Shown piece by piece: positions 24,623 through 56,680 of a stretch of 64,000 bases of DNA. This DNA comes from Polyangiales bacterium. GTDB lineage: Bacteria; Myxococcota_A; Polyangia; Polyangiales; Polyangiaceae. Numbering within the stretch: position 1 is the stretch's first letter; each line of letters opens with the position of its first letter. A model generated the notes under the pieces. It was not told the DNA's origin. It saw only the letters and a program-made list of their open reading frames with translations, and did not search any database. The position numbers and the translations under genes are program-made. The DNA lies in contig JBBRLQ010000003.1 of NCBI GenBank assembly GCA_038231275.1, positions 236,340-300,339 on the forward strand, in the 5' to 3' direction.

Positions 24623-24657
24623 CTCGCCGAAGAGTAGACTAGCCTCCGCCTTCCGCC

Positions 24658-25603: not shown

Positions 25604-25609
25604 CGAAAC

Positions 25610-29213: not shown

Positions 29214-29257
29214 AGCGCGGGGAGGCGTGCTGAAGCGCGCCGAAGCCGCAGACGGGC

Positions 29258-30148: not shown

Positions 30149-30204
30149 CCTGACATCGTACCCGAGGGGTTTTGCCGTTGTCGAAAACTGCGAGAGAGCG
30201 GGGC

Positions 30205-33103: not shown

Positions 33104-33156
33104 AGCGCATTTCTGTGGCCGCTTCCGATGCTTCGTGTCACCTGTTCCGTTCGGCC

Positions 33157-34569: not shown

Positions 34570-34598
34570 CGCGCGTTCCTTTCGCCCGGAACCGACGC

Positions 34599-35366: not shown

Positions 35367-35429
35367 CGCCGCGCTCTTAGCACGGCTGGTGGCGTCACGA
35401 CGTGTGGACGTCGAGGTGGAGCTGGAGCC

Positions 35430-35777: not shown

Positions 35778-35958
35778 GGGCGGACCCTATGACGGCGCGA
35801 CGCGATCCACAATGGGTGGCCTGACGAATTGTCCCTCGTTTCGCCGATGTTCGTGAGAGGCATTGCGCGACGCGCCGCGAGGGCGCATAGTCCACGCGGC
35901 TTCGCTGGGCGAGTTCGATCGCTCGCAGCCAAGGGCATGCGGTACTCTCGCGTCACCC

Positions 35959-36432
35959 GTGGACATCTACCTCCTCCGATCGTCGTCGTGCGTGGACGAC
36001 TCGCCCGCCGTGCCCGAGTCGCACCGCTTCCTCTCGCGCGAAGGGCGCCAGCTCGTTCGCGCCATCGGCAACAAGATCCGACTCGACGAGGAGCCGACCT
36101 TCGACTGCATCCTCACGAGCCAGGCGCCTGCGGCGATCCAGACCGCCGAGCTCTTCGCCGATCGCGTGGACTACGTCGGCGTCGTCGAGATCCTGCCGCA
36201 GCTCGGCGCGGGCGTCCCTTCGCAGGTGGCAGCCCCGATCGTGCTCGCGCGCGGCGTCACGGTCGCCGTCGTCGCCGACGAGCCGATGCTCTCGATGCTT
36301 GGCGCCTTCTTGATCGGCCGCACCACGTTCCCGCCGCTCCTGCACGCGCAGGTGTCGGTCATCCACGATCGTCAACCGGCGTGGTGCTTGCGACCCGGCG
36401 AGCCCACGCGTTCGCTGCTGCTCGTCGCGTGA
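35959..36432 (+). CDS. SixA/histidine-phosphatase-fold protein lacking catalytic His (pseudo-phosphatase candidate)
   Basis: 157 aa from GTG after 181-bp lower-GC intergenic; aligns by eye to SixA but RHG is replaced by RSS (VDIYLLRSSS) and the second His is absent. Confidence 0.5.
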   Translation: MDIYLLRSSSCVDDSPAVPESHRFLSREGRQLVRAIGNKIRLDEEPTFDCILTSQAPAAIQTAELFADRVDYVGVVEILPQLGAGVPSQVAAPIVLARGVTVAVVADEPMLSMLGAFLIGRTTFPPLLHAQVSVIHDRQPAWCLRPGEPTRSLLLVA

Positions 36433-36441
36433 GCGGAGCGA

Positions 36442-40560
<4,119 letters not shown>

Positions 40561-40597
40561 CGCCGCCTCCCTTGCAGGTCAGCGTCGCATGGTTTCG

Positions 40598-41524
40598 TTA
40601 CTTGCGCCGTGCGCTTCGGCGACGCGCGGAGAAGAGGCCGAGCGCGACGAGGAGCGATGCGCCCGAGACGCCCGCCGTCGACTCCCTCGACGAGATCGCG
40701 CAGCCGTTCTTCTGGCCTCCCGCGCCGAACGAGCCGGGGTCGGCGCCCGACGAGCCGCCGTCGACGTCGCCGTTCGATCCGCCGCCCGACGAGCCCGCCG
40801 AGCCCGACGTGCCTCCGCTGGTTCCGCCGCTCGTGCCTCCGCTGGTTCCGCCGCTCGTGCCTCCGCTCGCGCTCGCGTCGCCGCCGCTGCTGGTGCCGCC
40901 GTCGATGGTGCTGGCGCCGTGCTTGAGCACGAGATCGATGCACTGGTGGTAGATGTCCTCGACGCCGACGCCCGGCGTCGGATCGTAGGGACCGTGGAAC
41001 GCGTCGTCCTCCATGACCTGGATGATCTGGAGCGTGCAATTCGTGCACTCTACATTCGGCAGCGTGACGTCCCACGAGTAGGTCGGCGAGCCGCTCGGCA
41101 TGTGCGGGTTCAGGTTGTCCATGCCCTTCAGCACGGCGGTCGTGTTGTAGAAGTCGGACGTCCCACAATGATCGCCGGGGCCGTCCGGGCACGCGCGGTT
41201 CGGATCGATCGGGAGGATCGACTGCGGCTCCTTGAAACCGTCGTCGCCGTCGTTGTCGAACGCGATGCGGAAGTAGCTCGGGTGCGCGACCGTCTCGACG
41301 AGCTTGATGGTGATCTTCTGACCGGGCTCGTACGTGTACACGTGGGCGCCGCGTACGCCGTTGGTGCGTCCGCAGGGGCCCGCCTTGATGCTCGACGCGG
41401 AGTCCCCGTAGCGCGAAAGATGCGTGCCCGCGGCCTCGAGGCTGATGTGCGCGGCGGCGGGCGCTGCGACGAAGGCGAGGGCGAGCGAGGGGCCGGCGAA
41501 GGCGGCAAGGAAGCGGAACTTCAT
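40598..41524 (-). CDS. Secreted MYXO-CTERM protein with candidate His-brace (LPMO/AA10-like) domain
   Basis: 309 aa from MKFRFLAAFAGPSLALAFVAAPAAA|HISLE (AxA cleavage would expose N-terminal His); motifs IKLVETVAHPSYFRIAF and EDIYHQCIDLVL resemble remembered AA10 (CBP21: WKLTARH…WRYFITK; AFYQAIDVNL); (GGTS)n linker; C-terminal GC…hydrophobic…RRRSARRK = MYXO-CTERM. Confidence 0.75.
   Translation of the reverse strand: MKFRFLAAFAGPSLALAFVAAPAAAHISLEAAGTHLSRYGDSASSIKAGPCGRTNGVRGAHVYTYEPGQKITIKLVETVAHPSYFRIAFDNDGDDGFKEPQSILPIDPNRACPDGPGDHCGTSDFYNTTAVLKGMDNLNPHMPSGSPTYSWDVTLPNVECTNCTLQIIQVMEDDAFHGPYDPTPGVGVEDIYHQCIDLVLKHGASTIDGGTSSGGDASASGGTSGGTSGGTSGGTSGGTSGSAGSSGGGSNGDVDGGSSGADPGSFGAGGQKNGCAISSRESTAGVSGASLLVALGLFSARRRSARRK
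40795..40875. repeat. 24-nt tandem repeat (gtgcctccgctggttccgccgctc)x2.5 coding (GGTS)n
   Basis: seen directly. Confidence 0.75.
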
Positions 41525-41703
41525 GCCCTTCGCGTACCACGGGGGCGGAAGCGCGGCACGCCGCGGCGTCGCGCCTGAGGGGAAACGCGCTTTGCCGTCG
41601 AGGCCGAGCGCATCCGTTGCGCGCGGCATTTTCCGCGCGCGGGGCTCGTCAACGGCGCGCGAAGGTGCGATGACTTGCGGGCATTTCACGAAAGGCTCGC
41701 ACC

Positions 41704-42096
41704 ATGACCATCCGCCACGCCGCCGTCTGGATCGATCACAACGAGGCGCGCGTCTTCGACGTCGCCGACGCCTCGTTCGACGTCGCGCACGTGAACGCGC
41801 CGCACTCGCACGTGCACCGCCACCCCAAGGTGACCCACGATCACGAGCACCCCGCCGACGCGCAGAAGTTCTTCCACGAGGTCGCGCACGCGCTCGCCAC
41901 CGCCGAAGAGATCTTGGTCCTCGGACCGTCGACCGCGAAGCTCGAGCTCATCAAGCACATCCACAAGCACGACCACGCGCTCGAGCCGAAGATTGTCGGC
42001 GTGGAGACGGTCGACCACCCGACGGACGGCCAGATCGCCGCGTACGCGCGGAAGTACTTCCACGCGGCGGATCGCATGAAGGGCACCGTCCGCTAA
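41704..42096 (+). CDS. His-rich small conserved hypothetical protein
   Basis: 130 aa; ~18 His (HxHxH runs: HSHVHRH, HDHEH, HIHKHDH); strong GC3; GAAAGG upstream. Confidence 0.7.
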   Translation: MTIRHAAVWIDHNEARVFDVADASFDVAHVNAPHSHVHRHPKVTHDHEHPADAQKFFHEVAHALATAEEILVLGPSTAKLELIKHIHKHDHALEPKIVGVETVDHPTDGQIAAYARKYFHAADRMKGTVR

Positions 42097-42153
42097 TCCC
42101 GCGCGCGGGCCCGTTCGCCCCAAAAGGCGCCGGATTCGTGCGACACTCGCGGC

Positions 42154-43116
42154 GTGCATTTCGAGATCCACGCGGATTGCTCGGCGTGCCGCGTGGAGGG
42201 GGCCGTCACCGAGACGTGGGACACCGACGGCGCATGCGGTCGCCTCGGCGTCCCGCTGTCCGCGCGGTGCCGCATGTGCGGCGCGGCGAGCGAGGGGCGT
42301 GCGAGCGCGGACGCGATGTTCCCGTCGGGGTGTCCGGCGTGCGGCGCGGATCTCGACGACGCGTGCCGAGACGCGCACCGCTGTCCGATGTGCGGCGCCG
42401 GTGCCCAGCTCCACGCCGCTTCGGCAGGACGCGCCTTCGCGTCGCGCGCCGAGCTCGAGGCCGCGCTCGACGCGTGGGCGCGCGACGAGGGGCTGTCGTC
42501 GTCGCGTGAGCTCATCGAGTCAGCGTTCGTTCTCGGGACTGTCGAGGCCGTGCACGCGGCCCTCGAACGGGGCGAAAGAGTCGAGACCACCTTCGACGTC
42601 GCCGATCTCCTGTTCGGCTCGGGCCAGTCGGGCGGCGGAGGCGAGACGATCGCGATCGATCGCGAAGAGAAGCCGCCCAATACGCAGCGCATGCGCCCGC
42701 CTCCATCGATCCGTCGCTATGGAGGAGCGTACGACGAGCTCCTCGCCCTCGCGTCGGTCGCCGCCGCCGACGGCGAAGCCAACGCGCAAGATCTCGGCGC
42801 CCTCGAGCGCGCCGCGCAGACCCGCGGCCTCCAGCCGTTGCCGCTGTCGGAGGTGCGCGTGCGCCGTCCCGGCGAGATCGATCCGCCGCCCACCCTCGTC
42901 GATCGCGAACGCCTCCTCGAGGAGATGTTCCAGATGGCGTGGGCCGACGGCGAGATGGACCCGAGCGAGCTCAAGGTCATCCGCGAGTTCTCGCGCGTGT
43001 GGGGCATCGACCCCGAACGCCTCGAGGAGTGGACCAAGATGTACACGTTCGCGGACACCGGCCGCATCGAGCGGTGGTTCCGTCGCGTCGGTCAGATGAT
43101 TTTCCCGGAGAGATGA
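42154..43116 (+). CDS. TerB-like domain protein with N-terminal Cys-cluster (zinc-ribbon) region
   Basis: 320 aa from GTG; 4 CxxC pairs in N-terminal 90 aa; C-terminal TerB/DjlA-N-like helical domain (…LLEEMFQMAWADGEMDPSELKVIREFSRVWGIDPERL…). Confidence 0.7.
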   Translation: MHFEIHADCSACRVEGAVTETWDTDGACGRLGVPLSARCRMCGAASEGRASADAMFPSGCPACGADLDDACRDAHRCPMCGAGAQLHAASAGRAFASRAELEAALDAWARDEGLSSSRELIESAFVLGTVEAVHAALERGERVETTFDVADLLFGSGQSGGGGETIAIDREEKPPNTQRMRPPPSIRRYGGAYDELLALASVAAADGEANAQDLGALERAAQTRGLQPLPLSEVRVRRPGEIDPPPTLVDRERLLEEMFQMAWADGEMDPSELKVIREFSRVWGIDPERLEEWTKMYTFADTGRIERWFRRVGQMIFPER

Positions 43117-44099
43117 GCATGAACGTTCCCGTCGACGCCCCCGCACCGCAGGCGCAGCAAGGACAGAAGGAACGCATCGCCAAGGTGGGCGTGCAGTTTC
43201 GCGCGGTCATGCAGAACGTCGAGCGCGTCATTCTCGGCAAGAGCGACGTCATCGCGCGCGTCCTCGCGGCCATGTGCGCCGGCGGCCACGTGCTCCTCCT
43301 CGACGTGCCTGGCGTCGGCAAGACGATGCTCGCGCGCTCGATCGCCGCGTCGATCCACTGTTCGTTCAAGCGCATCCAGTTCACGCCCGATCTGCTCCCG
43401 CTCGACATCACCGGCACCAACGTCTTCAACCTCCGCAAGAAGGCGTTCGAGTTCGTGCCAGGCCCCGTCTTCGCGAACCTGCTCCTCGCCGACGAGATCA
43501 ACCGCGCGACACCGAAGACGCAGGCCGCGCTGCTCGAGGTCATGGCCGAGGCGCAGGTCACCGTCGACGGCACGACGCACATGATGCCGCCGCCGTTCCT
43601 CGTCATCGCGACGATGAACCCGCTCGAGCATGACGGCACCTTCCCGCTCCCCGCCGCGCAGCTCGATCGGTTCAGCGTGCGCGTCACGATGGGCTTCCCG
43701 CCGCCGGACGCCGAGGTGCGCATGCTCGACGTGCACCTGGGGAAGGACGTCGCGATCTCGGCGCTCCAGCCGGTGCTCGGCGCCGAGGAGTTCCTCTCGT
43801 GGCAGCGCCTTTTGCCGACGATTTACGTCGCGGAGGCCGTGAAACGCTACTCGGTCAACGTGATGAGCGCGATGCGCACGGACTCCGGGTGCCTCACGCC
43901 GCCGAGCCCGCGCGCGACGCTGATGTGGCTGCGCATGGGGATGGCGATGGCGATGCTGCAGGGCCGCGATCACGTCCTCCCCGGCGATTTGCAGCAGTCC
44001 GCGGTGGACGTGCTCGCGCACCGCATCGTCGTCTCGGGCCAGCGCAGCGCGTCGGCGTACGTCGACCACGTCGTCCGCAGCGTCCCCGTGGATCGGTGA
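43113..44099 (+). CDS. MoxR-family AAA+ ATPase
   Basis: 328 aa; ATGA overlap; Walker A GVPGVGKT, Walker B LLADEINRA, …LVIATMNPLE…, …LDRF…. Confidence 0.9.
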   Translation: MSMNVPVDAPAPQAQQGQKERIAKVGVQFRAVMQNVERVILGKSDVIARVLAAMCAGGHVLLLDVPGVGKTMLARSIAASIHCSFKRIQFTPDLLPLDITGTNVFNLRKKAFEFVPGPVFANLLLADEINRATPKTQAALLEVMAEAQVTVDGTTHMMPPPFLVIATMNPLEHDGTFPLPAAQLDRFSVRVTMGFPPPDAEVRMLDVHLGKDVAISALQPVLGAEEFLSWQRLLPTIYVAEAVKRYSVNVMSAMRTDSGCLTPPSPRATLMWLRMGMAMAMLQGRDHVLPGDLQQSAVDVLAHRIVVSGQRSASAYVDHVVRSVPVDR

Positions 44100-44103
44100 T
44101 CGG

Positions 44104-46233
44104 ATGATGAGCGCGCGGCCGCTCCGCCACCAGCCGACCTCCGCGACGAGCAAAGAGACCGTCGCGATCCTGTGGTTTTTCCTCGGATGGACCGGCGCGC
44201 ACCGGATGATCCTCGGCAACGTCGCGGTCGGCGTCGCGTACGGCGCGCTCACCTTCTTGACGTGCGGCTTCGGCGGCATCGTCGGCTGGCTCGACGGCTT
44301 CCTCCTCCTCTTGCGATCGCCGAAGGACCAGTACGGACTGCCGGTGGTGTGGTCGTGGCGCAAGGGGAAACTCTTCATCGATCCGCTCGAGGAAGGCACC
44401 TACGAGCCGGCCGAGTCGCGCGCGCGCATCCTCATGCACTTCGGGCTCCTCTTCTTGATGCCCTACCTCGTGGTGAGCGGCGGCCTCACGCTCTTCGAGA
44501 CGAGCGAGATCAAGAACACGCTCCCGAAGTTCGCGTTCTTCTCGGGCCTCCTCCTCGTGCCGCTCTTCCTCGTGCAGCTCATCGGAACGATCCGCAAGGC
44601 GCGCATGCAGATCGACATGCTCCGTAAGGCGGGCGCGCTCACCAAGCGCACGCGCCTCGACGCGATCGCGCGGGCGGCGTCGATCGTCACGCCGCGCGGC
44701 GGGCTCGTGCTCGTCACCGGACTGGCGTTCTTGGTGCTTTCCTTGGCGTACAAATGGGCGGAGCTCGGCGTCATCGCGGTGCTCGCGCTGAGCGCGTTCT
44801 ACCTCGTGACGTCGACGGCGGCGCTCCTCAGCTCGTTCGTGGTCAAGCGCTTCTCGAACAACCTCCTCGAGCGCGGCGCGGTCGTCCATCGGCGCTTCGA
44901 GCCGGGCGTCACGCGCTCGGGCGCCGCCGCCGAGGATCGGCTGGATTTGCGCGGCGTCCCCGTGCCGCCCGGATTTTTCCTGACGCTCCACGGCATCCTC
45001 CCGCCGCGATTGTCGACCGAGGTGCGTCACGTCGTTCCGCCGAAGGCGCGTGACGAGCGCCTCTCCCTCGTCCAGCAACTGAGGCGCACGCCGCGCGGAA
45101 CGTACGAGGCGCCCGCGCTGCGCGTGGCGTTCACGGATCTCCTCGGCCTCACGAGCGCGCCGGTCGCGTCGCTCGCCACGGCGCGCCTCCGCGTTCTGCC
45201 GTCGATGCGCCCGGCCGAAGTCGTCCCGCCGCCGCCGTCGTCGACCGAAGAGCCGGACATCCTGTCGCGTCCTCACCGCTTCCCGACGGAAGATCTCTTT
45301 CGCTTTCGCGAGTACGTCTCTGGCGACGACACGCGACGCATCCATTGGGGCCTGTCGATGCGCGCGCGCAAGATGATCGTGAAGCAGCCGGACAGCCGCG
45401 AGACGTCGGCGCGTCGCGTGGTCGTCGCGCTCGACACGTGGGTGCCTCCCGATTGGCTCGATCACACCGCCGTCATCGACGACGCGCTCGACTCGCTCGT
45501 CGAGGCGTGGCTCGCGATCGGGCAACGCCTCGTGGAGCAAGGCGAGAAAGTGACGCTGCTCTTGGTCGCGCGCGGCGACGACGGCCTCATTCGTCACGAG
45601 CTCGTCTCGTGCAGCACCGCCAACCACGCGCACTGGCTCGACGCTGGCGCGCGCGCGGAGTGGCAAGCGACACTGCCGATCGAGAACGTCCTCGACTACG
45701 GCGTGCAACAGGGAAATTCCGGCGGAAAGGAAGAGACCGCCTTCGACAACGCGATCGTCGTCACGATGCGCCTGGCGCCGCCGCAGATGCCGCGCGTGGC
45801 GCGCGAGACGACCTGGATCTGGTACGACCCCGACGACGCGCTCGGCGCGCCGCCACGCACCGCGTTCCAGACCTGGCTCGACGACGACGACACCGGTCGC
45901 AAGCCCACTGCGGGTGAGCTGTGGAAGCGCATGTTCTTTCTTCCGTACGCCGTCGGCGCCGAAGAGAACGGGCTCCTCGCGCGCATGAGCCGCCTCGAGC
46001 GTCGCCTCGAAGATCGCGCGCACCGCATCGCGCTGCGGCGCATGGCCGTCATGAGCGGACGGCGCGCGCTGCAAGGCCTCCTCGCGCTGCCCGACGCGGT
46101 CTACAAGCTCGAGGTCGTCGAGGGGCGTCACCGCATGGTCGGCATGAAGGGCTCGAGCCGCGCCGCGCGAACGGTCGATCGGCACCAAGGGCAGCGCGCC
46201 GCGCCGGCCGGACGCGCGGGGGCGTGGCCGTGA
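44104..46233 (+). CDS. TM2-domain::DUF58 fusion protein
   Basis: 709 aa; N-terminal TM2 signature (…FLGWTGAHRMILGNVAVGVAYGALTFLTCGFGGIVGWLDGF…), further TMs, DUF58 core (…FREYVSGDDTRRIHWGLSMRARKMIVKQ…). Confidence 0.85.
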   Translation: MMSARPLRHQPTSATSKETVAILWFFLGWTGAHRMILGNVAVGVAYGALTFLTCGFGGIVGWLDGFLLLLRSPKDQYGLPVVWSWRKGKLFIDPLEEGTYEPAESRARILMHFGLLFLMPYLVVSGGLTLFETSEIKNTLPKFAFFSGLLLVPLFLVQLIGTIRKARMQIDMLRKAGALTKRTRLDAIARAASIVTPRGGLVLVTGLAFLVLSLAYKWAELGVIAVLALSAFYLVTSTAALLSSFVVKRFSNNLLERGAVVHRRFEPGVTRSGAAAEDRLDLRGVPVPPGFFLTLHGILPPRLSTEVRHVVPPKARDERLSLVQQLRRTPRGTYEAPALRVAFTDLLGLTSAPVASLATARLRVLPSMRPAEVVPPPPSSTEEPDILSRPHRFPTEDLFRFREYVSGDDTRRIHWGLSMRARKMIVKQPDSRETSARRVVVALDTWVPPDWLDHTAVIDDALDSLVEAWLAIGQRLVEQGEKVTLLLVARGDDGLIRHELVSCSTANHAHWLDAGARAEWQATLPIENVLDYGVQQGNSGGKEETAFDNAIVVTMRLAPPQMPRVARETTWIWYDPDDALGAPPRTAFQTWLDDDDTGRKPTAGELWKRMFFLPYAVGAEENGLLARMSRLERRLEDRAHRIALRRMAVMSGRRALQGLLALPDAVYKLEVVEGRHRMVGMKGSSRAARTVDRHQGQRAAPAGRAGAWP

Positions 46234-47876
46234 GCGTCAAGGGGACGCTGCGCCGTACCTGGCCGGTGCTGCTCGCGTACGCCGTCTTCTCGGCGTGGGG
46301 CCTCGTGTGCCTCGTCGTCAGCATTTTCCTCTCGAGCGGAGGAGGGGGAGGAGCCGACATCGCGGCGCTCATCGGCATCATCGTCGCCACCGCGGTCGGT
46401 CACGTCGGCGGCAACGTCCTCGGCCTCGCGCGCCTTCGCCTCGCGGTGGTCTTCGTCGCGTTCCTTCTCCTCTTCATCGGCGGCACGATGCTCGCGGCGA
46501 CGCTGGGGCCCATCGGCGTGTACGCCCTCGTCGCGATGATCGCGGCGCTCAGCGGCTACCTCGGCGTCGCGAGCCGCCTCGACGTCGTCGCCGCGTGGTT
46601 CCCGCTCTCGCTCTCGGTCGGCGCCGCCATTCTCTGGATGAACCGCCACGGCGCCGTGTCCACGTTCGAAGGCGGAAACAAGCACGCGATCTGGGATCCG
46701 TTCACGCTCGTCTGCCTCACCGGCACCGTCTTCTTGATGCTCGTCTTCCTGGCGACACGAAACTCGCTCGGCCTCACCGCGTGGCAGGAGTTCGGTCGGC
46801 GCGGCGGACGGCTCGGCGCGGCGCCCGAAGAGGCGGAGCAAGTCACCGTCGCCCGCCCTGGTCGCGGCAGCCTCCTCGTCCTGTTCGCGTTCACGCTCGT
46901 CGTCCTCGGCGCGACGGCCGCGGTCTCGCCGTACCTGTTTCGCACGTCGCAAGATCCGGACGCGAAGGATGGCTCGTCGAAAGACGGCGAGGGAGAGCAC
47001 AAGGGCGACGGCAAGGACGGAAAAGAAGGGAAAGACGGCAAGGAAGCGAAGGACGGCAAAGACGGGAACGGGAAGGGCAAAGGGAAGGGAAAGGGCAAGA
47101 GCGGGCAGGGCAAGGGGAAGGGCACCCGCAAGGGGCGCGGACACGGGGGCGGCCATGGGAGCAGCGGTGGCGGCGGTAGTGGTGGCGGCGGTGGCGGTGG
47201 CGGTGGCGGCGGTCACGGGGGCGGCAGCGGTCACGGCGGCCATGGCAGCGGTCACGGCAGCGGCGACGGAAACGGTGACGGGACCGGCGACGGAAAAGGC
47301 GACGGAAAGGGCGACGGAAAGGGCGACGGCAGCGGCGACGAAGGGGACGAGAGCCAAGCCTCGAACGAGCCGGACACCGAGCACGCGAGCGAGGCCGCCG
47401 GTGAAGCGCTCCGGCTCGGCGCCAAGATCCTGATGTGGTTGCTTGCGGCGGCCTTCGTGCTCCTCCTCTTCCTCTTGATCGTGTTTCCGCCGATTCGCCG
47501 CGCCATTTTGCTACGTCACCTCGAACGCCCCATGTGGCCCGTTCCGCCCACCGCGCGCGTCATGAACCTCTGGCGTCGCGCGCGCGCGCTCCTCGCCGAT
47601 GTGGGCATCGAGCCCGAGCTCGGCGAGACGCCCGGCGATTTCGCGAAGCGCGCGACCGGAGAGGTGCAAGAGAAGCTCGGCTGCGACGCGCCAGGCCTGG
47701 CCGAGGCGGCGGCGATCCTCGAAAAAATCGAGTACGCGGGGCGCGGTCTCGGCGCGGAGGACGCGCAGGCCATGCGCACCGCGGTCACCGCGTTCGTCGC
47801 GGAGGTGGCGCCGCACGTCGCGACGGGCAAGAAGGTGAAGAGCTGGTGGGGCAAGCCGCCGGAGGTCGAGGGGTGA
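46230..47876 (+). CDS. Membrane protein with Gly/Lys/Asp/His-rich low-complexity insert and DUF4129-like C-terminal domain
   Basis: 548 aa from GTG overlapping upstream stop (GTGA); TM helices, ~130-aa low-complexity region, C-terminal TM then DUF4129-like tail. Confidence 0.75.
   Translation: MSVKGTLRRTWPVLLAYAVFSAWGLVCLVVSIFLSSGGGGGADIAALIGIIVATAVGHVGGNVLGLARLRLAVVFVAFLLLFIGGTMLAATLGPIGVYALVAMIAALSGYLGVASRLDVVAAWFPLSLSVGAAILWMNRHGAVSTFEGGNKHAIWDPFTLVCLTGTVFLMLVFLATRNSLGLTAWQEFGRRGGRLGAAPEEAEQVTVARPGRGSLLVLFAFTLVVLGATAAVSPYLFRTSQDPDAKDGSSKDGEGEHKGDGKDGKEGKDGKEAKDGKDGNGKGKGKGKGKSGQGKGKGTRKGRGHGGGHGSSGGGGSGGGGGGGGGGGHGGGSGHGGHGSGHGSGDGNGDGTGDGKGDGKGDGKGDGSGDEGDESQASNEPDTEHASEAAGEALRLGAKILMWLLAAAFVLLLFLLIVFPPIRRAILLRHLERPMWPVPPTARVMNLWRRARALLADVGIEPELGETPGDFAKRATGEVQEKLGCDAPGLAEAAAILEKIEYAGRGLGAEDAQAMRTAVTAFVAEVAPHVATGKKVKSWWGKPPEVEG
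46975..47345. repeat. Composite low-complexity coding repeats: imperfect (GGCAAG)n, poly-GGY (Gly) run, (GGCGACGGAAAG)x4
   Basis: ggcgacggaaaaggcgacggaaagggcgacggaaagggcgacggc and ggtggcggcggtagtggtggcggcggtggcggtggcggtggc seen directly. Confidence 0.8.
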
Positions 47877-49009
47877 GCGCCGCCGGCCTCGTTCTCACGC
47901 TCAACGCCGGATCGTCGAGCCTGAAGGCCGCGCTGTACGACGGCGCGGATCCGCCTTCGGTGCTCATGAGGGACAGCGTCGAACGCATCGGCGCCGGCGG
48001 TCCGAGCGACCACGACGCCGCGGCGTCCAGCGTCCTCGCGAAGCTCGCGCCGTTCGGTGGCCTCGACGCGGTGACGGCGGTCGGGCACCGCGTCGTCCAC
48101 GGCGGCGCGCGCTACGAAGGGCCCGCGCGGGTCGACGACGCGCTGCTCGCCGAGCTTCGTCGCCTCGCGCCGCTCGATCCGCAGCACCTACCCGCGGAGA
48201 TCGCTCTCATCGAAGCGCTCGTGCAGCGCGCCCCGACGACGCCGCAGGTCGCGTGCTTCGACACCGCGTTTCATCGGACGATGCCGCGCGTCTCGCGCCT
48301 CGTCGCGCTCCCGCATCGGTACGGCGACGCGGGCGTCGAGCGCTTCGGCTTTCACGGTCTGTCGTGCACGTTCGTCCTGCGCGAGCTCCGTCGCGTGGCC
48401 GGCGAGCACGCCGCGAGTGGACGCGTCGTCGTGGCCCACCTCGGCTCGGGCGCCAGCCTCACCGGGGTTCGCGACGGGCGATCGATCGACACGACGATGG
48501 GCTTTACCCCCACCGGCGGGATCCCGATGGGCACGCGTTCGGGCGATCTCGATCCGGGCGTCCTCGTTCACCTCGCGCGGACCGAAGGCCTCGACGCTGC
48601 CGCCCTCGACGATCTCGTGAACCGGCGCTCGGGCCTCGCTGGCGTCTCTGGTGGAAGCGGCGACATGCGCGATCTTCTCGCGCGTGAGGCGCAAGATCCG
48701 CGCGCAGCCGACGCGGTCGCGCTCTTCTGTCACGCCGCGAAGAAGGCCATCGGCGCGCTCGCAGCTGTTTTAGGCGGGGTAGACACGCTCGTCTTCACCG
48801 CCGGCATCGGAGAGCGCTCCTCCGTGGTGCGCGCACGCATCGTGCAGGGATTGGAGCACCTGGGAATGCTGCTCGACCAAGATCTCAACGATCGTCACGC
48901 GCCTGTCATCTCGACACCACCAAGCGCGTGCACCGTTCACGTGATGAAGACCGACGAAGAGCTCGTCATTGCGCTCCAGACACGCCGACTCCTCGAAGGG
49001 ACTCCATGA
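47873..49009 (+). CDS. ackA: Acetate kinase
   Basis: 378 aa from GTG (GTGA overlap); …[12 protein letters not shown]…, …HRVVHGG…, …GFHGLS…, …VAHLGSGAS…, …GIGE…. Confidence 0.9.
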
Positions 49010-51375
49010 CCACACCCGTGAGCCACGATCTGCTTCGCACGATGGACGCGTACTGGCGCGCCGCGAATTATCTCTCCGTGGGGCAAATCTACCTGCTCGC
49101 GAATCCGCTCCTGCGTGAGCCGCTGCGTATCGCGCACATCAAGCCGCGCCTCCTCGGCCACTGGGGGACGACGCCAGGCCTCAATTTCGTCTACGTGCAC
49201 ATGAATCGAATCATCCGCGAGCGCGATCTGTCGGCGATCTACATTGCGGGCCCCGGGCATGGCGGGCCTGGGGTCGTCGCCAACACGTACCTGGAGGGAA
49301 CCTACAGCGAGGTCTACCCGAAGGTGTCGATGGACGCGGCGGGCATGTCGCTCCTCTTCAAGCAGTTCTCCTTCCCTGGCGGCATTCCGAGCCACGTCGC
49401 GCCGGAGACGCCGGGGAGCATTCACGAGGGGGGCGAGCTCGGGTATGCGCTCTCGCACGCGTTCGGCGCGGCGTTCGACAACCCCGATCTGTTCGTCTGT
49501 TGCGTCGTCGGCGACGGTGAGGCGGAGACCGGACCGCTCGCGACGAGCTGGCACTCGAACAAATTCCTGAACGCCAAGACCGACGGCGCGGTCCTGCCGA
49601 TTTTGCACCTCAACGGCTACAAGATCGCTGGCCCCACAGTGCTCGCCCGCCTCCCGCGCGAGGAGCTCGAGCAGCTTTTTCGCGGCTATGGGTACGCGCC
49701 GGTCTTCGTCGAAGGAGACGATCCGGCGCGCATGCACGTGCTCATGGCCAAGGCGCTCGACGACGCCGCCGACGAGATCACACGCATCCAGGGCGACGCG
49801 CGCGCGAGGGGCGTGACCACGCGCCAGCGGTGGCCGATGATCGTGCTGCGCACGCCGAAGGGATGGACGGGCCCGAAGGTCGTCGACGGCAAGCCCGTCG
49901 AGGGGACCTTCCGCGCGCACCAGGTACCGCTTTCCAATTTGGCGAAGAGCCCGGAGCACGTCGCGATGCTCGAGGCGTGGATGAAGAGCTACAGGCCCGA
50001 GGAGCTCTTCGACGCGAGCGGACGCTTCTTGCCGGAGCTCGCGGCGCTGGCGCCGAAGGGGACGCGACGCATGAGCGCGAACCCGCACACCAACGGCGGG
50101 ATCCTGCGCAAAGAGCTCGTGATGCCCGATTTTCGAGCGTACGCGATCGACGTCCCTTCACCGGGCAGCGTCGACGCCGAGGCCACGCGCGTCCAAGGCA
50201 AGCTCATTAAAGACGTGCTCGTCCTGAACCGCGACGCCCACAACTTTCGCGTCTTCAGCCCCGACGAGACGGCGTCCAACCGATGGGGCGACGTCTTCGA
50301 CGTGACCAATCGAAACTCGTCGGCCGAGATCCTACCGGGCGACGATCACGTGGCGGTCGACGGACGCGTCATGGAGATGCTGAGCGAGCACCAGTGCCAA
50401 GGCTGGCTCGAGGGTTACCTCCTCACCGGGCGTCACGGGATGTTCTCCTGCTACGAGGCGTTCATCCACATCATCGACTCGATGTTCAACCAGCACGCCA
50501 AGTGGCTGAAGGTGACGAACGGCATCCCGTGGAGGCGCCCCATCTCGTCGCTCAACTACCTCCTCACGTCGCACGTGTGGCGCCAGGATCACAACGGCTT
50601 CAGCCACCAGGACCCGGGCTTCATCGACCACGTGGTGAACAAGAAGGCGGACGTCATCCGCGTGTACTTGCCGCCGGACGCCAACACGCTCCTCTCGGTC
50701 ACCGACCACTGCCTGCGAAGCACGAGCTACGTGAACGTGATCGTCGCGGGCAAGCAGGCGGCGCCGCAATGGCTGACGATGGCAGAGGCCGAGGTCCACA
50801 CGCGGGCGGGCGTCGGGGTCTGGGAGTGGGCGAGCGCAAAGGGCGGGACGGCGCCGGACGTCGTCATGGCCTGCGCGGGCGACGTCCCCACCCTGGAGAC
50901 GCTCGCGGCGGTCGATCTCTTGCGTGCGCACCTCCCGGATCTTCGCGTGCGCGTCGTGAACGTCGTCGACCTGATGAAGCTCCAACCGGCGGGCGAGCAT
51001 CCGCACGGGCTCGCCGATCGCGACTTCGACGCGCTCTTCACGACCGACAAACCGATCATCTTCGCGTACCACGGCTACCCGTGGCTGATTCACCGCCTCG
51101 CCTACCGCCGCACGAATCACAAGAACCTGCACGTGCGCGGCTACAAGGAGGAGGGGACGACGACGACCCCGTTCGACATGACGGTGAAAAACGATCTCGA
51201 TCGCTACCACCTCGTCTGCGACGTGATCGATCGCGTGCCCTCGCTCGGCGAGAAGGGGGCCGCCGTGAGGGCGTGGATGCACGCCAAGCTCGCCGAGCAC
51301 ACGCGGTACATCCGCGAGCACGGAGACGACATGCCCGAGGTGAAGGCCTGGCGCTGGGGCGTCGCCCGCGCGTAG
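49006..51375 (+). CDS. xfp: Phosphoketolase (xylulose-5-P/fructose-6-P)
   Basis: 789 aa; ATGA overlap with ackA; …[10 protein letters not shown]…, …GPGHGG…, …[12 protein letters not shown]…, …GDGEAETG…. Confidence 0.92.
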
Positions 51376-51387
51376 TCCTCGTTTTGG

Positions 51388-53235
51388 CTATTTTTTGGCC
51401 TTCGCCGCGCACGCGAGCGGATCGCCCTGCATGCACGCACGCTCGACCTGCGGTCTTCCGAACCCGGCGTTGCCGGTGGCGAGGTTGATGACGCCGGCGC
51501 TCGCGCAGTCGCGCACCGAGCCGGCGTTGCACTTCGCCGTGAGATCCATGCTCTGCGGTCCCGGCATGACGACCTGGGTGCCGCCGAAGAGCACCTTCAT
51601 GGCGGCGCACGCGACCAAGTTCTGTTTGAACGTGCACGCCGGCTCGAACGCGCGCTTGGCGGCGTCGGCGTTTCCGCCGAACCCGAGCTCGAGGCGCCCC
51701 TGGTTCACGCACGCGTCCGAGTCGCCGCGGACGCACGCGCGCTGGTAGACCATCTTCGCGAGGATGGCGTTCTTGGGGACATCCTTCCCGATCTCGCTCA
51801 TGAGCCCGAGATCGTTGCACGCCGCGATCTGCGAGCCGTCGCACGCGCGCTTCAACGCCACCGCAGCCTTCACCGGATCTTTCGCGGTGCCTTCACCGGC
51901 GAGGAGGACGCGCCCCAGCGCCGCGCACGCGTGATCGTCCCCGCCGTCGCAGCCCTGACGGAGGAGTGTGGCCGCGCGCGCCGGATCCTTCGCGACGCCA
52001 TCGCCGCCGCGCACCATGACGCCGAGCATTCCGCAGCCCTTCGCCTCGCCCGACTGGCAGCCCTTTTCGAAATCCTTCGCCGCGCCCGCCGGATCCTTCG
52101 CGCCGCCGCGCCCCTGCAGGAGAAGCGTCCCGAGCGTCACGCATCCCTTCGCGTCGTTCGCGTCGCACGCCTTGCCGAGCAGCTCGCGCGCCTTCGCGTC
52201 GTCGTGCGGCAGGCCTGCGCTTCCACTCGCGTAGAGCGAGCCCGCGGCCGCGCAGCTCCCGGCGTTGCCCTTCGTGCACTGCTCCGCGCACTCCTTGCCG
52301 TTCACCGGATCGCAGAGGAACGCCGTCGCGTTCTTCCCTTCGGTGCATTTGCCGTCGGCGTAGACGAGGCCCTTCGGGCACGGCTCCTCTTGGACCTCGA
52401 TCGTCGCGTGCTTCGGTGCTTCGGGCGGCGGCGCCGGCTTGGCCGCGGCTTCTGCGGGCGGCTTCGGCAAGATCGCCTTTAGCTCGAGGCGGACGAGCGC
52501 CTGGCACTGCGTCGGTGGCGAGGTCGCATCGGGCGACGACTTGGTGCAGTCGCCAGGGTCGCCGTCCTGGTTGCGCACGTTCTTGCCGCTTGCCGACGCC
52601 CCGCTGGCCCCTGCGCCGAAGATCTGCGCGGCGGTCCGCGCCTGCGCCTTCGATCCGGTCTCCATCACGAACGCGCCGATCGTGGCGCCTTTCACGAAAT
52701 GCGTGGCCCCGTCGCACTCGCCTTTCAGGTCGTCCATCCCGACCTTGGCCCATGTCGTCTTCTTCTTGCCGATGAGGATGAGGGCGACGTCGAGCGTCGC
52801 CCCGCGATCCATCTCGCCGCCGATGCTCGCCGCGATGCCGACGCCTCCGAGCGGGAGGTTGGCCTTCAGCTCGTCGCTGTTCTGCAAGCGAACGAGCTGC
52901 TCCTTCTTGGTCATTCCGAGGAAGCCGTACTGGCCGTCGACCTTGCAGTCTTTCAGGACCTTCAGGCCCTTGCAGCTGTACGCGACCACCGCGACGCCAT
53001 CCTTCATGAGGACCTCGAGGTCGCCGCGCTGCTCCGGCTTCCAGTCGACGACGAGCGGCTCGCCGTACGACTCCACCTCGCGGCACGTGCCGCCGCTTGC
53101 GCCTCCGCCGGGCTCGCCCATCGCCGCCGCGAACGTCTGGTCCTTCGGGCGGATCGCTTCGGCGGGCGTGCCGCCGCAGTCGATCGTCGCGAGCGAGAGG
53201 AGACCGAGTGCGAGAGGCAGCGCGCGCTTGTGCAT
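51388..53235 (-). CDS. Sel1-like repeat lipoprotein
   Basis: 615 aa from MHKRALPLALGLLSLATIDCGG; ~10 Sel1-like units (…KACDANDAKGCVTLGTLLLQGRGGAKDPAGAAKDFEKGCQSGEAKGC…). Confidence 0.8.
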   Translation of the reverse strand: MHKRALPLALGLLSLATIDCGGTPAEAIRPKDQTFAAAMGEPGGGASGGTCREVESYGEPLVVDWKPEQRGDLEVLMKDGVAVVAYSCKGLKVLKDCKVDGQYGFLGMTKKEQLVRLQNSDELKANLPLGGVGIAASIGGEMDRGATLDVALILIGKKKTTWAKVGMDDLKGECDGATHFVKGATIGAFVMETGSKAQARTAAQIFGAGASGASASGKNVRNQDGDPGDCTKSSPDATSPPTQCQALVRLELKAILPKPPAEAAAKPAPPPEAPKHATIEVQEEPCPKGLVYADGKCTEGKNATAFLCDPVNGKECAEQCTKGNAGSCAAAGSLYASGSAGLPHDDAKARELLGKACDANDAKGCVTLGTLLLQGRGGAKDPAGAAKDFEKGCQSGEAKGCGMLGVMVRGGDGVAKDPARAATLLRQGCDGGDDHACAALGRVLLAGEGTAKDPVKAAVALKRACDGSQIAACNDLGLMSEIGKDVPKNAILAKMVYQRACVRGDSDACVNQGRLELGFGGNADAAKRAFEPACTFKQNLVACAAMKVLFGGTQVVMPGPQSMDLTAKCNAGSVRDCASAGVINLATGNAGFGRPQVERACMQGDPLACAAKAKK

Positions 53236-53293
53236 GCGGCGGAGCCTACGAGAGGCCGTCGCGATCCACCAGCGGCGCCGAGTCACCCTGCGC

Positions 53294-54835
53294 TCAGCGC
53301 GGCTTCTTCGGCACCGCCTGGTACGCGATGCTCCAGTCTTGCTGCGGGTTCCACATCAGCCACCCGACGCCGCCCGACTCCGCCGCGCTCTTGATCTCCT
53401 GCGCGAGGTAGTTGGGCCCGTACTCCGACGACTTGTAATACATCGCCTGCAGCCACGGACGCACGACGGCGAGAGGTCGCGTGTCGCTGCCGCCCCGTTT
53501 GGCCATCTGCTCGAGCGTGCCCTTGGTGCCGATGCCGACGATCTCGGGGTGGTTGCCCGGCTCCTCGAATCCGTAGAAGCCCTTGTTGTAGTGTGATGGA
53601 TACACCATCGGACTGAGCGCCTCGCACTCGGGCGCGAGCATCATCGGATCCTGGCCGAGCATGTCGATGTCGAGGTGGTTGCCGTGCGCGACGACGCCGA
53701 AGATGTCGAGCGACAGCGGGACGTTTCGCGCCTTCGTCGTCTCGTGCACCTTCTTCACGAAGCCGGTGATGACCTCGACCTTCGCGAGCGGGTTCTTCGG
53801 ATCGAGCTTGAAATCCGCGTTCTTGATGGCCAAGACCGGGTAGCGGACGTAGTCGAGCTCGATCTCGTCGACGCCGTTGTCCATCGCCTCTTTCACGAGA
53901 TCGAGGAGGTACGCCTGCGCGCCGGGGTTATTGGGATCGAGCCAGCCGTTGCCGTACGGCCCGCCCCATTTGCCGCGCACGCTGATCTCGGGCTTGGCCT
54001 TGGCCATCAGCTCGTCCTCGAAGCACGACACGCGCGCGACGACGCGGATGCCCCGCGCGTGGGCGAAGCGCACCGTCCTCGCGAAATCCGCGATGGGCGC
54101 GTTCTTGGTGGCGCCGACCTCGATCGCCAGCGGAACCTTCGACGGGTAGGTCAGCGGGCCGTCGTAGTCTTTGACGTCGAGGACGATCGCGTTGATGCGC
54201 CGCTCGGCCATGTGATCGAGCATGGAGAGGAAGCCCGCGCGCGCTGCGCTGTCGCCGCGCACGTAAAATCCACGGATCTGCTTGTCCTCGGGCCACCCCA
54301 GACGCTCGGCGTCGCCTGTCTTGTAGGGTACGTCGAGCAGGTGCGGGATCTTGAAGCGCATGCCCTCGAGGACGCCCTTCTTCGCGTCGGGGAGGTTGGC
54401 GTTCACGATCTCTTTGGCGAGGTCCGCGTCGAAGTACACGTCAGTGAGATCGAGGTACGCCTTCGCGATCGACTGCCACGTGTCGCCCTTCTTCGCGACG
54501 TGAACCACGGAGAGCGGCGAGGTCCCGTCGTCGACGATCTCTCCGCCGGCGGGAATGCGCGTCTTCAGCCACGCTGCGAGTGTCGCGCGGGGGCTCTCCT
54601 TCGGCGCGTCGGTCTTCGCACCGACGGCGTCGTCCGTGACGGCCGAGGTCGTCACCGTCGAAGCGGGCACGCCCGTCGATTGCGCGGGATCGCGCGCGAT
54701 GAGGGGGGTCGCTCGGTTCCCCGCGTGACCGCCGCACGCCGCGATCGCCAGCGCGAACGCCGAGACGAGCGCCGCCGCGCCCGAATGCCCCGACCTCGAT
54801 GCCCCGTTCTTTCGCTGCGACTGGACTGCGCCCAT
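53294..54835 (-). CDS. LysM-containing putative glycoside-hydrolase-like (GHL/DUF4015 TIM-barrel) lipoprotein
   Basis: 513 aa; lipobox (LAIAACGG), LysM-like (…VAKKGDTWQSIAKAYL…), TIM-barrel-like region (…NAIVLDVKDYDG…, …HARGIRVVARV…, …DEIELDYVRYP…). Confidence 0.7.
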   Translation of the reverse strand: MGAVQSQRKNGASRSGHSGAAALVSAFALAIAACGGHAGNRATPLIARDPAQSTGVPASTVTTSAVTDDAVGAKTDAPKESPRATLAAWLKTRIPAGGEIVDDGTSPLSVVHVAKKGDTWQSIAKAYLDLTDVYFDADLAKEIVNANLPDAKKGVLEGMRFKIPHLLDVPYKTGDAERLGWPEDKQIRGFYVRGDSAARAGFLSMLDHMAERRINAIVLDVKDYDGPLTYPSKVPLAIEVGATKNAPIADFARTVRFAHARGIRVVARVSCFEDELMAKAKPEISVRGKWGGPYGNGWLDPNNPGAQAYLLDLVKEAMDNGVDEIELDYVRYPVLAIKNADFKLDPKNPLAKVEVITGFVKKVHETTKARNVPLSLDIFGVVAHGNHLDIDMLGQDPMMLAPECEALSPMVYPSHYNKGFYGFEEPGNHPEIVGIGTKGTLEQMAKRGGSDTRPLAVVRPWLQAMYYKSSEYGPNYLAQEIKSAAESGGVGWLMWNPQQDWSIAYQAVPKKPR

Positions 54836-54928
54836 GAGAACGACAGAATGCTAGGGTTCGCACGCAAAGCAAGTTCTCGGACGGTTTCCGGGCTCCCTTC
54901 GGCTCGACGTGCTACGCGAATCGAAACG

Positions 54929-55648
54929 ATGCGTTGGCTCCCCGTCTCGATCGCCGCCGCCGCGCTGTTCACCTCCGTCGCGGCGTTCCCGGGCCGCGCG
55001 CGCGCCGAGGACGTGCGAGACTTGCCCAGCCGCGTCGGCGTCTTGCCGTCGGTCGGCGTGGGCGTCGCGAAGATCGGGAATTCTTCTCCATTCCCGAGCG
55101 TCGTCGGCCTCACCACCTTCGGCATCGAAGTCCACGCCGAGGTCCCGCCCTACGGCGGCTTCTTCCGCTTCCAGTTCGACTCGAGCGGCCTCGACGGACG
55201 ATGGACCACGCCGTCGTTCGCCCTCGGCGGTAGCTACCGCTTCTTCGGCGACGGCGTCGAGCGCCTCGCGCTCCTCGGCCGTTTCGGCTTCCTGTACGAG
55301 CGCTGGCACGCGACGTCCGGCGACTGCCCGATCGATCTCTTCTTTCCGTCGAACTGCAAAGCGCTCGTCGCGCCGGCGCCCTCGGGCGTCCTCCTCAACA
55401 CGGTCCCCATCGTGACGGTGACGGGCGATAACCTGGGCCTCCTCGCCGGCGTGCGCGCGGAGATGCCGATCGCGCTCTTTTACCTCGCGGTGGACGGCGA
55501 GGTCGGCGGCCTGGTCGACGTCTCCGAGTCGACGCCCGGCACCGTGCTCCATTTTCGTCTCTCGCTGGTCGCCGCCTTCCGCGACGCGCGGAAGAAGGAC
55601 AATGAGCCGCAGAGTCGCGACCCGCGCCAACGCCGCCGGCAGCCCTGA
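54929..55648 (+). CDS. Secreted hypothetical protein
   Basis: 239 aa from MRWLPVSIAAAALFTSVAAFPGRARA (signal peptide); beta-rich; the longer 657-aa ORF is an antisense spurious extension. Confidence 0.65.
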   Translation: MRWLPVSIAAAALFTSVAAFPGRARAEDVRDLPSRVGVLPSVGVGVAKIGNSSPFPSVVGLTTFGIEVHAEVPPYGGFFRFQFDSSGLDGRWTTPSFALGGSYRFFGDGVERLALLGRFGFLYERWHATSGDCPIDLFFPSNCKALVAPAPSGVLLNTVPIVTVTGDNLGLLAGVRAEMPIALFYLAVDGEVGGLVDVSESTPGTVLHFRLSLVAAFRDARKKDNEPQSRDPRQRRRQP

Positions 55649-55701
55649 CGTCGGAGGTGGAGGGAGCGGCGCCCCGCGCGCGGCCTGCTAGGCTCCCTGC
55701 C

Positions 55702-56565
55702 ATGAACGCGCGTGGGGTGTGGGGGGTGCTTACGGTGGCTTTGGTCGGGCTGGGCGGCGTGTGGCTCGTTGGCTCGTGCGGCGGCTCGAGCGACGCGAGC
55801 TTCACCAACGCGGACGGCTCGGCGGAGGCTGCGGGCGACGGGCCGGCCAACGGAGGGGACGGCGGCCTCGGCGACGGCGGCAACCCGCCCGGCTGTCCGG
55901 CGACCCAGCCGAGCGGCGCGTGCTCGGGGCAGAAGAGCGGCTGCACGTACGGCTGCGAGTCGTGCTTCTGCCAGTCCGGCCAGTGGCAGTGCTCTGCGCC
56001 GGGATGCGCGGGAGGCTGCTTCCCGACGCCACCCACCGCAGGCACGCAGTGCGGAGGGTGCTGCGGACCGAGCGTCGGAATGAGCTGCGACTACGGATGC
56101 GCCGGCGACGCCGGCACGTTTCGCGCGACGTGCGTGGGCACCAGCGGCCTCAGCGGCACGTGGACCGTCGGCGCCTGCGCGGCGGGCGGGTCGAACCCCG
56201 GGAAGGTGACGTGCGGCGCCGCCGAATGCGATCTCGACGCCGGCCAAGAGTGCTGCGACACCGTGACCAACGACGCCGGAGTACAAAAGTGCGGCTTCTC
56301 GGGCGCCGGGAGCTTCTGCATGCTTGGCGCTCCCGAGGCGTGCGACGAGAAGGCCGACTGCACGGGCGCCAACATTTGTTGCATGCAGTTTCTCCCGCTC
56401 GGCATCGAGACGTCGTGCCTTCCCACGTGCATCACCGGCGCCGAGCGCTACCAGGCGTGCAAGACGAGCGCGGAGTGCGAGAGCGGCACGGGCCCGTGCG
56501 CGACGTACACGTGCAAAAACGGCGAGACCGTCCAGTCGTGCACGAAGCCGGTCGAGTGCAAGTGA
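55702..56565 (+). CDS. Cys-rich lipoprotein (myxobacterial Cys-rich repeat type)
   Basis: 287 aa from MNARGVWGVLTVALVGLGGVWLVGSCGG; ~40 Cys in CxxC/CC patterns. Confidence 0.7.
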   Translation: MNARGVWGVLTVALVGLGGVWLVGSCGGSSDASFTNADGSAEAAGDGPANGGDGGLGDGGNPPGCPATQPSGACSGQKSGCTYGCESCFCQSGQWQCSAPGCAGGCFPTPPTAGTQCGGCCGPSVGMSCDYGCAGDAGTFRATCVGTSGLSGTWTVGACAAGGSNPGKVTCGAAECDLDAGQECCDTVTNDAGVQKCGFSGAGSFCMLGAPEACDEKADCTGANICCMQFLPLGIETSCLPTCITGAERYQACKTSAECESGTGPCATYTCKNGETVQSCTKPVECK

Positions 56566-56680
56566 GTCCCCGCCCTAAGGGCAGGGCACGACCTAGTGGT
56601 TCTCGCAGCACTGCTCGTGCGCCGACGGCGGCACGACGGGAGGAGATGGGGGAGGGGATTGAAACGACTCCGACTCCGAC

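Follow-up and report, generated by a model that had tools for sequence, protein, structure and literature searches.

A conserved MoxR cassette and an independent ackA–xfp pair, probably set head to tail by a recent rearrangement in a Polyangiales lineage

Organization of the locus

The locus described here lies in a 64-kb stretch of DNA from a Polyangiales bacterium (hereafter the window; about 70% G+C), in which six co-directional open reading frames (ORFs) on the plus strand, encoding a MoxR-type cassette followed by acetate kinase and phosphoketolase, occupy positions 42154 to 51375. The ORFs and their junctions were read directly off the sequence, and domains were assigned with Pfam and NCBIfam. 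The first four genes make up the cassette: gene 1 (42154–43116, 320 aa) encodes a zinc-ribbon/TerB-like protein (Pfam TerB), gene 2 (43113–44099, 328 aa) a MoxR-type AAA+ ATPase (Pfam AAA_3 and AAA_lid_2), gene 3 (44104–46233, 709 aa) a TM2::DUF58 protein (Pfam TM2, with a DUF58 score below the cut-off) and gene 4 (46230–47876, 548 aa) a DUF4129 membrane protein (Pfam DUF4129). They are followed by ackA (47873–49009, 378 aa), for an acetate/propionate-family kinase (Pfam Acetate_kinase, TIGR00016), and xfp (49006–51375, 789 aa), for a phosphoketolase (XFP_N, XFP and XFP_C; NF003619).

Four of the five junctions are 4-nt overlaps, namely ATGA at 43113 (gene 1/gene 2), GTGA at 46230 (gene 3/gene 4), GTGA at 47873 (gene 4/ackA) and ATGA at 49006 (ackA/xfp); the fifth, between genes 2 and 3, is a 4-nt gap separating a TGA at 44097–44099 from an ATG at 44104. 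For the MoxR gene, an ATG at 43119 could serve as the start instead, which would give a 2-nt gap in place of the first overlap. The six gene identities, the domain architecture and all five junctions agree with those given in a preliminary description of this DNA.

The cassette and the ackA–xfp pair in other genomes

We surveyed the neighbourhoods of homologues of genes 1 and 3 over the full range of relatedness available, using protein-indexed contigs and a scan of one genome per species, and obtained 14 distinct cassette loci. In 13 of them the sequence extends 1.5 kb or more past the DUF4129 gene, and in the other (locus L007) 0.5 kb. The named homologues of genes 1 and 3 belong to Labilithrix sp., Polyangiaceae and Myxococcales metagenome-assembled genomes (MAGs), which makes the source of the window a Labilithrix-like myxobacterium. 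The order TerB-like, MoxR, TM2::DUF58, DUF4129 is identical in all 14 loci, the junctions in relatives being mostly overlaps or gaps of a few bases, with a TerB–MoxR gap of up to 36–38 nt in some, and full-length matches show 82–90% identity to the window protein for MoxR and 66–93% for TM2::DUF58. Only Labilithrix-like Myxococcota yielded gene 1 and the TM2::DUF58 fusion, and the relatives of gene 3 in other Myxococcota, at about 40% identity, are without the TM2 part. The cassette is a four-gene operon specific to Labilithrix-like myxobacteria, and a modest, clade-specific variant of the known MoxR–DUF58–DUF4129 modules.

Neither AckA nor Xfp was found at any of the 14 cassette loci, as judged by tblastn with the window proteins and from the gene tables. 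The downstream neighbour of the cassette varies from locus to locus and may be an opposite-strand RRM gene, a haem-binding-like gene, hypothetical genes, a gene for a VWA lipoprotein, or genes whose products resemble, by eye only, a subtilisin-type peptidase and a bestrophin-like protein.

Phosphoketolase yields acetyl-phosphate, which acetate kinase turns into acetate and ATP, and this XPK–ACK route to ATP is established (PMC10365998). Both window enzymes are assigned with comfortable scores: AckA gives 336 bits with Pfam Acetate_kinase and 336.9 bits with TIGR00016 (cut-off 293.4), and Xfp gives 1477 bits with NF003619 (cut-off 962), with XFP_N, XFP and XFP_C all present. A metagenome scan with the window AckA returned 80 loci, of which 77 were informative for the position of xfp. 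In 45 of these 77, xfp lies on the same strand no more than 300 nt downstream of ackA, and in 56 it lies downstream within 10 kb, but cassette-gene homologues were found within 10 kb of ackA in none of the 80. The ackA–xfp pair is thus independent of the cassette and widely conserved, in keeping with the established route to ATP. The nearest non-identical AckA is 83% identical (its Xfp 94%) and is encoded behind a response-regulator/GGDEF gene, both in MAG GCA_043785185.1 and in a Logan contig, and the relatives at 68–69% identity are preceded by a LysE gene; in both sets alike, ackA and xfp share a 4-nt overlap.

The preliminary description had taken ackA–xfp to be part of the same unit as the MoxR cassette. 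Neither survey bears this out (0/14 cassette loci with ackA or xfp and 0/80 ackA loci with cassette genes), and the adjacency is absent from relatives, an outcome that the preliminary description had itself named as refuting its view; the junction is present only in a species-level contig 94.6% identical to the window.

A gene for a His-rich protein of 130 aa lies just upstream of the cassette (41704–42096, plus strand). Homologues of this protein (41–45% identical) are encoded divergently, immediately upstream of ackA–xfp, in two unrelated metagenome loci (L064 1726–2103 and L087 9523–9858, both minus strand). The protein has no significant Pfam match and only a faint pelota/eRF1-like similarity (E 0.0095). 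It may represent a recurrent ackA–xfp neighbour that has here been split off by the cassette, though the orientation differs.

The joint between gene 4 and ackA

The joint between the cassette and ackA–xfp (47846–47883, plus strand) was examined by alignment with loci L104, L106, L007 and L101. In the cassette-only relatives, the DUF4129 gene ends ...CCGCCGGAGGTGGAG-(AGC or GGT)-TGA-GCG, after which the sequences diverge, while the window reads ...CCGCCGGAGGTCGAG-GGG-TGA-GCG and runs on into ackA. The GTG start of ackA (47873) is made up of the last G of the GGG codon of gene 4 and the TG of its TGA stop. A GGAGG motif at 47861–47865, 7 nt upstream of this GTG, falls in the part of gene 4 that codes for the conserved residues PPEVE (relatives conserve the C-terminus ...KPPEVEG*), and it is already present in relatives without ackA. 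The bases GAGCG mark the end of homology to the cassette-only relatives and also occur at the matching place in the ackA leader of L101, a possible microhomology.

In L101 there is an in-frame GTG directly before the LTLNAGSSS motif of AckA, and in the window this codon is GTT. The window has no in-frame start between 47873 and a conserved motif of ackA, and the sole alternative, a GTG at 47846, overlaps gene 4 even more, so the overlap is robust. From these alignments we infer that the original upstream region of ackA is gone and that its start now comes from the end of gene 4.

Downstream of xfp, a gene for a Sel1-repeat protein (51388–53286, minus strand, 632 aa; Pfam Sel1) is convergent with xfp, and beyond it lies a gene for a DUF4015 protein, a putative glycosyl hydrolase (53294–54835, minus strand; Pfam DUF4015, 1.4e-66). 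The stop codons of xfp and the Sel1-repeat gene are 12 nt apart (51373–51390), with no terminator-like hairpin between them.

In MAG GCA_043785185.1 the two modules are apart: contig 592 carries ackA–xfp, whereas the cassette lies on contig 256 (L104) with DUF4015 after it, the convergent DUF4015 gene beginning 7 nt past the DUF4129 stop. A second lineage (L106) has DUF4129, a Uma2 gene and DUF4015 in sequence. By blastn, L104 and L105 are collinear with the window over 43494–47883 and then over 53299–55590, L106 is collinear to 47879 and resumes at 53303, and the homology of L101 to the window starts only at 47857. The jump in collinearity in L104 and L106 means that the window has an extra segment of about 5.4 kb (47877–53293), carrying ackA and xfp on the plus strand and the Sel1-repeat gene on the minus strand. 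The cassette-only relatives that carry the DUF4015 boundary have about 82% DNA identity to the window; the window, L104 and the L106/L007 pair are roughly equidistant (about 81% nucleotide identity), and ackA is absent from the cassette site in all ten more distant cassette-bearing genomes. As ackA stands at this site in the window lineage only, insertion of the segment in that lineage is the parsimonious reading.

No terminal direct or inverted repeats were found at 47877 or 53293, and this search for flanking repeats gave no evidence for a transposon-type insertion of the 5.4-kb segment. The Sel1-repeat gene has no homologue in any fetched locus. The identity of AckA (83%) and Xfp (94%) to their counterparts in GCA_043785185.1 is comparable to that of the cassette proteins (80–93%), which favours a move within the lineage over acquisition from outside, and we therefore rejected horizontal gene transfer as the origin of ackA–xfp.

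The window AckA belongs to a cluster whose second member is represented by two contigs from two samples, L107 and L108. L107 is 94.6% identical to window 47210–51020, with the same DUF4129 3′ end, ackA, xfp and an identical junction sequence; the junction in L108 is also identical. Identity to the window is uniform, about 94–96%, either side of the junction. As an identical junction is present in independent assemblies from two samples, it is not an assembly artefact. The junction is fixed in this species-level lineage, but the comparison does not extend its conservation any further.

Two further observations concern contigs of relatives. L108 (about 1800–2418) matches L107 at 100% identity as far as about window position 49160 and at only about 70% beyond it, inside xfp, so that it is either an assembly chimera at a conserved stretch of xfp or a recombinant xfp allele. 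A further stretch of about 1.1 kb (window 55590–56677 against L104 6167–6226) is present in the window and not in L104, and includes a 119-aa ORF with high G+C at third codon positions (56091–56447, minus strand).

Overlap frequency and expression signals

Of the 69 co-directional neighbour pairs called in the relatives' loci, 18 share a 4-nt overlap; outside the cassette and ackA–xfp the figure is seven of 48 (15%). The overlapping pairs include quite unrelated genes, such as an abhydrolase, a Leu/Phe-tRNA transferase and a sigma-factor fragment in succession, a cyclase and a kinase, and GGDEF and ackA, and a crude scan gave further candidate overlaps elsewhere in the window. With a base rate of about 15%, an overlap shows compaction and probable co-transcription, and not shared function. 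The run of four overlaps marks tight, operon-like packing, but the DUF4129/ackA overlap alone is not unusual.

No promoter-like site was found in 40500–52500, by a scan that captures myxobacterial promoters poorly; terminator-like matches in the same interval were at chance level (six against 5.5 expected), and no Rfam elements were found in 40000–54000. As there is no intergenic region at the gene 4/ackA junction, read-through is likely, and co-transcription across all six genes in this species is plausible on the arrangement of the genes.

The cassette proteins and related systems

Gene 1 passes the gathering score of PF05099 (TerB, 37.5 bits) and has a TerB-like helical fold. The protein is cytosolic and consists of an N-terminal zinc-ribbon domain, a disordered linker and the C-terminal TerB-like helical domain. 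As the preliminary description had noted, this lead protein contains four CxxC pairs (C9/12, C39/42, C60/63 and C77/80), of which only the first two are conserved across the family; the zinc-ribbon domain had no structural match in the fold comparison. MoxR scores 202.2 bits with AAA_3 (cut-off 27; 3.1e-60) and 52.6 bits with AAA_lid_2 (cut-off 22.7).

Gene 3 encodes an N-terminal TM2 domain (PF05154, residues 16–65, 34.9 bits against a cut-off of 27.9), about five further transmembrane helices, a beta-sandwich, the DUF58 signature and a VWA-fold domain. The DUF58 match (PF01882, 21.4 bits) is just under the cut-off of 23.4; a PF01882 match is precomputed for many homologues at 65–75% identity, and the signature GDDTRRIHW is invariant among homologues. 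The soluble domain has the Rossmann-like alpha/beta fold of VWA domains, and the fold comparison gave structural matches to NorQ/NorD and BatB. The canonical metal-ion-dependent adhesion site (MIDAS) motif DxSxS...T...D is absent from gene 3: D444-T445-W-V-P448 follows the first beta-strand, with no serines, and D-T-W-x-P at this position is invariant, or nearly so, in 36 sequences. A homologue of the TM2::DUF58 protein at 42% identity (P0306) carries an added zinc-ribbon domain (PF13248), showing that the association of zinc-ribbon and TM2/DUF58 occurs as a fusion too.

The DUF4129 domain of gene 4 (PF13559, 42.2 bits against 24.8) is C-terminal (residues 447–519), and hydropathy predicts about eight N-terminal transmembrane helices, a linker and one more helix (400–418) before it. 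A Pfam search at E≤0.01 found no Transglut_core match in gene 4, and the Cys-His-Asp core of a transglutaminase was not found. The linker (residues about 250–395, window about 46980–47420) is a low-complexity stretch rich in G, K, D and H (GKDGKEGKDGKE...GGGGSGGGGGGGGGGGHGGGSGHGGHGSGHGSGDGNGDG...); nowhere else in the cassette do the nucleotide alignments to relatives break (here at 47171–47253), and the linker gives spurious PDB matches to engineered linkers. PDB sequence searches with a gene 3 profile and with gene 4 returned only noise and matches to the low-complexity linker. An anti-phage defence role was considered for the cassette and dropped: PADLOC, run on the four cassette proteins, found no match to a defence system, MoxR–vWA conflict systems included, the sole hit being a TRIP13 P-loop match short of significance (E 6e-4).

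As the preliminary description stated, MoxR–DUF58–DUF4129/transglutaminase cassettes are known but poorly understood (PMC12067865), and the known triads include the AAA-ATPase/DUF58/TGM core of the Bifidobacterium PFNA cluster and the mycobacterial moxR1–DUF58–vWA genes (PMC12067865). The window cassette resembles such triads in its order (MoxR, DUF58, then a membrane protein ending in DUF4129), in its tight packing and in a function that is unknown or chaperone-like. It differs from them in a strictly conserved extra lead gene (zinc-ribbon plus TerB-like), in the fusion of the DUF58 protein to TM2 and a multi-helix membrane anchor, in the lack of a detectable Pfam transglutaminase core in the DUF4129 protein and in having no kinase or FN3 genes. 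Pseudomonas TgpA-type loci are a further example of the MoxR–DUF58–transglutaminase/DUF4129 arrangement.

MoxR-family AAA+ proteins are also known to pair with VWA adaptors, as in NorQ–NorD, RavA–ViaA and the BatI/BatA–BatB proteins of Bacteroides and Borrelia (PMC5700661). In contrast to these pairs, gene 3 has the invariant D-T-W-x-P in place of the MIDAS DxSxS, which makes metal-dependent ligand binding by gene 3 doubtful, and the cassette has no recognizable client comparable to NorB or a respiratory complex. Gene 1, in turn, differs from the TerB proteins of tellurite resistance and from the N-terminal domain of DjlA: the cassette is not accompanied by genes of a ter operon (TerA, C, D, E or Z), and the TerB-like domain is fused to an N-terminal zinc-ribbon and encoded in a MoxR operon. 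The ackA–xfp pair, for its part, matches 45 of the 77 metagenome loci in enzymes and order, and differs from other such pairs only in its upstream neighbour and in the loss of a private upstream region, with the ackA start embedded in the preceding gene.

If the cassette works as NorQ/NorD, RavA/ViaA and further MoxR–VWA pairs do (PMC12067865), an analogy in line with the structural matches to NorQ/NorD and BatB, a MoxR hexamer would most probably dock at the inner membrane, on the VWA-like domain that the anchored DUF58 protein exposes to the cytosol, and use ATP to remodel, assemble or mature a membrane-associated client. The DUF4129 protein would be the obvious candidate for a partner or client, and the TerB-like/zinc-ribbon protein might act as an adaptor or sensor.

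Several features of the surroundings of the cassette were also observed. In five more distant relatives, a predicted lipoprotein of about 400 aa with an intact VWA MIDAS (FVLDRSGSM) is encoded on the same strand, 0.2–1.7 kb downstream of the cassette (L004 17091–18311, L010 6231–7424, L011 16936–18132, L012 16174–17364 and L018 16290–17597); it has no homologue in the 64-kb window, and in those five genomes it could act together with the cassette as an accessory partner. Two relatives have, a few kilobases downstream of the cassette and on the opposite strand, a second small TerB-domain gene (166–178 aa; L001 16883–17383 and L004 18271–18807, both minus strand), then a gene of about 249 aa. 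L007 is collinear with window 24653–33697 and then 42137–47879; about 8.4 kb of the window (33700–42137; L007 8053–8987), encoding a 1372-aa DUF2339 membrane protein, a lytic polysaccharide monooxygenase-like ORF and the 130-aa protein, is absent from it, so that the cassette is flanked on both sides by lineage-specific DNA. Past its DUF4129 stop (14560–15145), L007 has a short tandem repeat of GGATCCCGGTGCCGATCGACC-like units and then a minus-strand, frameshifted ORF, IS630-family transposase-like by eye only, where the contig ends.

Origin of the arrangement

The reading that we favour, and consider likely, is that two independently conserved modules have been set head to tail by a recent, species-level rearrangement, and that together they are probably not a conserved functional unit. 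The segment of about 5.4 kb containing ackA, xfp and the Sel1-repeat gene would have arrived between the DUF4129 gene and its former neighbour DUF4015, the joint falling exactly at the DUF4129 stop codon, so that the start of ackA would have been built from the last codon and stop of that gene. In this species, ackA–xfp would probably be expressed by read-through or translational coupling from the cassette, but such coupling would be an accident of the insertion point and not evidence that MoxR and phosphoketolase cooperate.

A number of points weigh against this view. Because gene 4 and ackA overlap, nothing intergenic lies between them; one more population or more, at about 95% identity, has the arrangement fixed, and selection for co-expression is possible. 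The direction of the event, insertion rather than loss, is a matter of parsimony over three roughly equidistant lineages and their outgroups. Binding of the pyruvate and oxoglutarate dehydrogenases by the MoxR of Francisella has been reported (PMC5368251), which leaves some room for a tie between MoxR and central metabolism. Moreover, the mechanism suggested for the cassette is drawn from analogy alone, with a degenerate MIDAS and a client that is only a candidate.

Of the alternatives, the one that survives best, with perhaps one chance in a few, accepts the adjacency as real but has ackA–xfp transcribed from an internal promoter in the 3′ part of the DUF4129 gene, and not as one unit with the cassette. 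Operon-internal promoters are common and sigma-70 consensus scans poorly capture those of myxobacteria, so that the lack of a promoter-like site in the scanned interval, together with chance-level terminators and no Rfam element, is weak evidence against it.

We consider it improbable that the locus is an adaptive operon fusion, in which acetyl-phosphate and ATP production by Xfp and AckA has come under the control of the cassette and the functions cooperate; MoxR might, for example, chaperone Xfp or AckA, or acetyl-phosphate might be a signal of the same membrane stress. A 4-nt overlap with a well-spaced GGAGG and no room for an intergenic promoter, a junction unchanged in a population diverged by about 5% and the Francisella precedent of MoxR binding metabolic enzymes would all fit such a fusion. 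However, no co-occurrence is seen beyond species level among the 14 cassette and 80 ackA loci, the GGAGG and the stop-codon context pre-exist in relatives without ackA and, if the called ATG start is used, a like overlap joins ackA to the unrelated GGDEF gene in the sister MAG. We likewise regard as improbable the more limited proposal of a six-gene operon in one species-level lineage, with phosphoketolase and acetate kinase expression slaved to the MoxR cassette promoter and kept by selection, either because acetyl-phosphate or ATP supply acts with MoxR in the same stress response or because MoxR acts on Xfp or AckA, as reported for the Francisella dehydrogenases. Functional coupling of the cassette and ackA–xfp, in whatever form, seems to us unlikely, and nothing in the present comparison speaks in its favour. 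Among the papers searched, we found none describing MoxR adjoining ackA or xfp, and none mentioning both Labilithrix and phosphoketolase.

More improbable still is a linkage already present in the ancestor of the clade and broken independently in each of the relatives, where ackA–xfp would have moved elsewhere. The near-equal distances among the window, L104 and L106/L007 do not set the branching order of the three lineages and so give this history some room, but it needs at least two independent excisions that precisely restored the adjacency of cassette and DUF4015 in L104 and L106, as well as absence in all ten more distant cassette-bearing genomes, and ackA–xfp has yet other neighbours in the relatives at 68–69% identity. 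Finally, although L108 shows that chimeric or recombinant xfp joins occur in such assemblies, the identity of the junction in the window and in two contigs from two samples, and the even level of identity on its two sides, make an assembly chimera at the junction itself scarcely credible.

Biological significance

If true, a physical and functional fusion of a MoxR chaperone system with the phosphoketolase shunt would connect AAA+ remodelling to central carbon metabolism in a new way. On the reading favoured here, of two modules brought together by rearrangement, the adjacency is young and lineage-specific, and so unfit for guilt-by-association annotation of the MoxR, DUF58 and DUF4129 proteins. 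The locus would instead show cleanly, at base resolution, how an insertion can fuse operons, the downstream gene having taken its start codon and a Shine–Dalgarno-like motif from the coding end of the upstream one. It also defines a clade-restricted, four-gene MoxR cassette, with a zinc-ribbon/TerB lead gene and a TM2-anchored, MIDAS-less VWA protein, the strict conservation of which makes it a tractable system for the function of MoxR–DUF58–DUF4129 modules.

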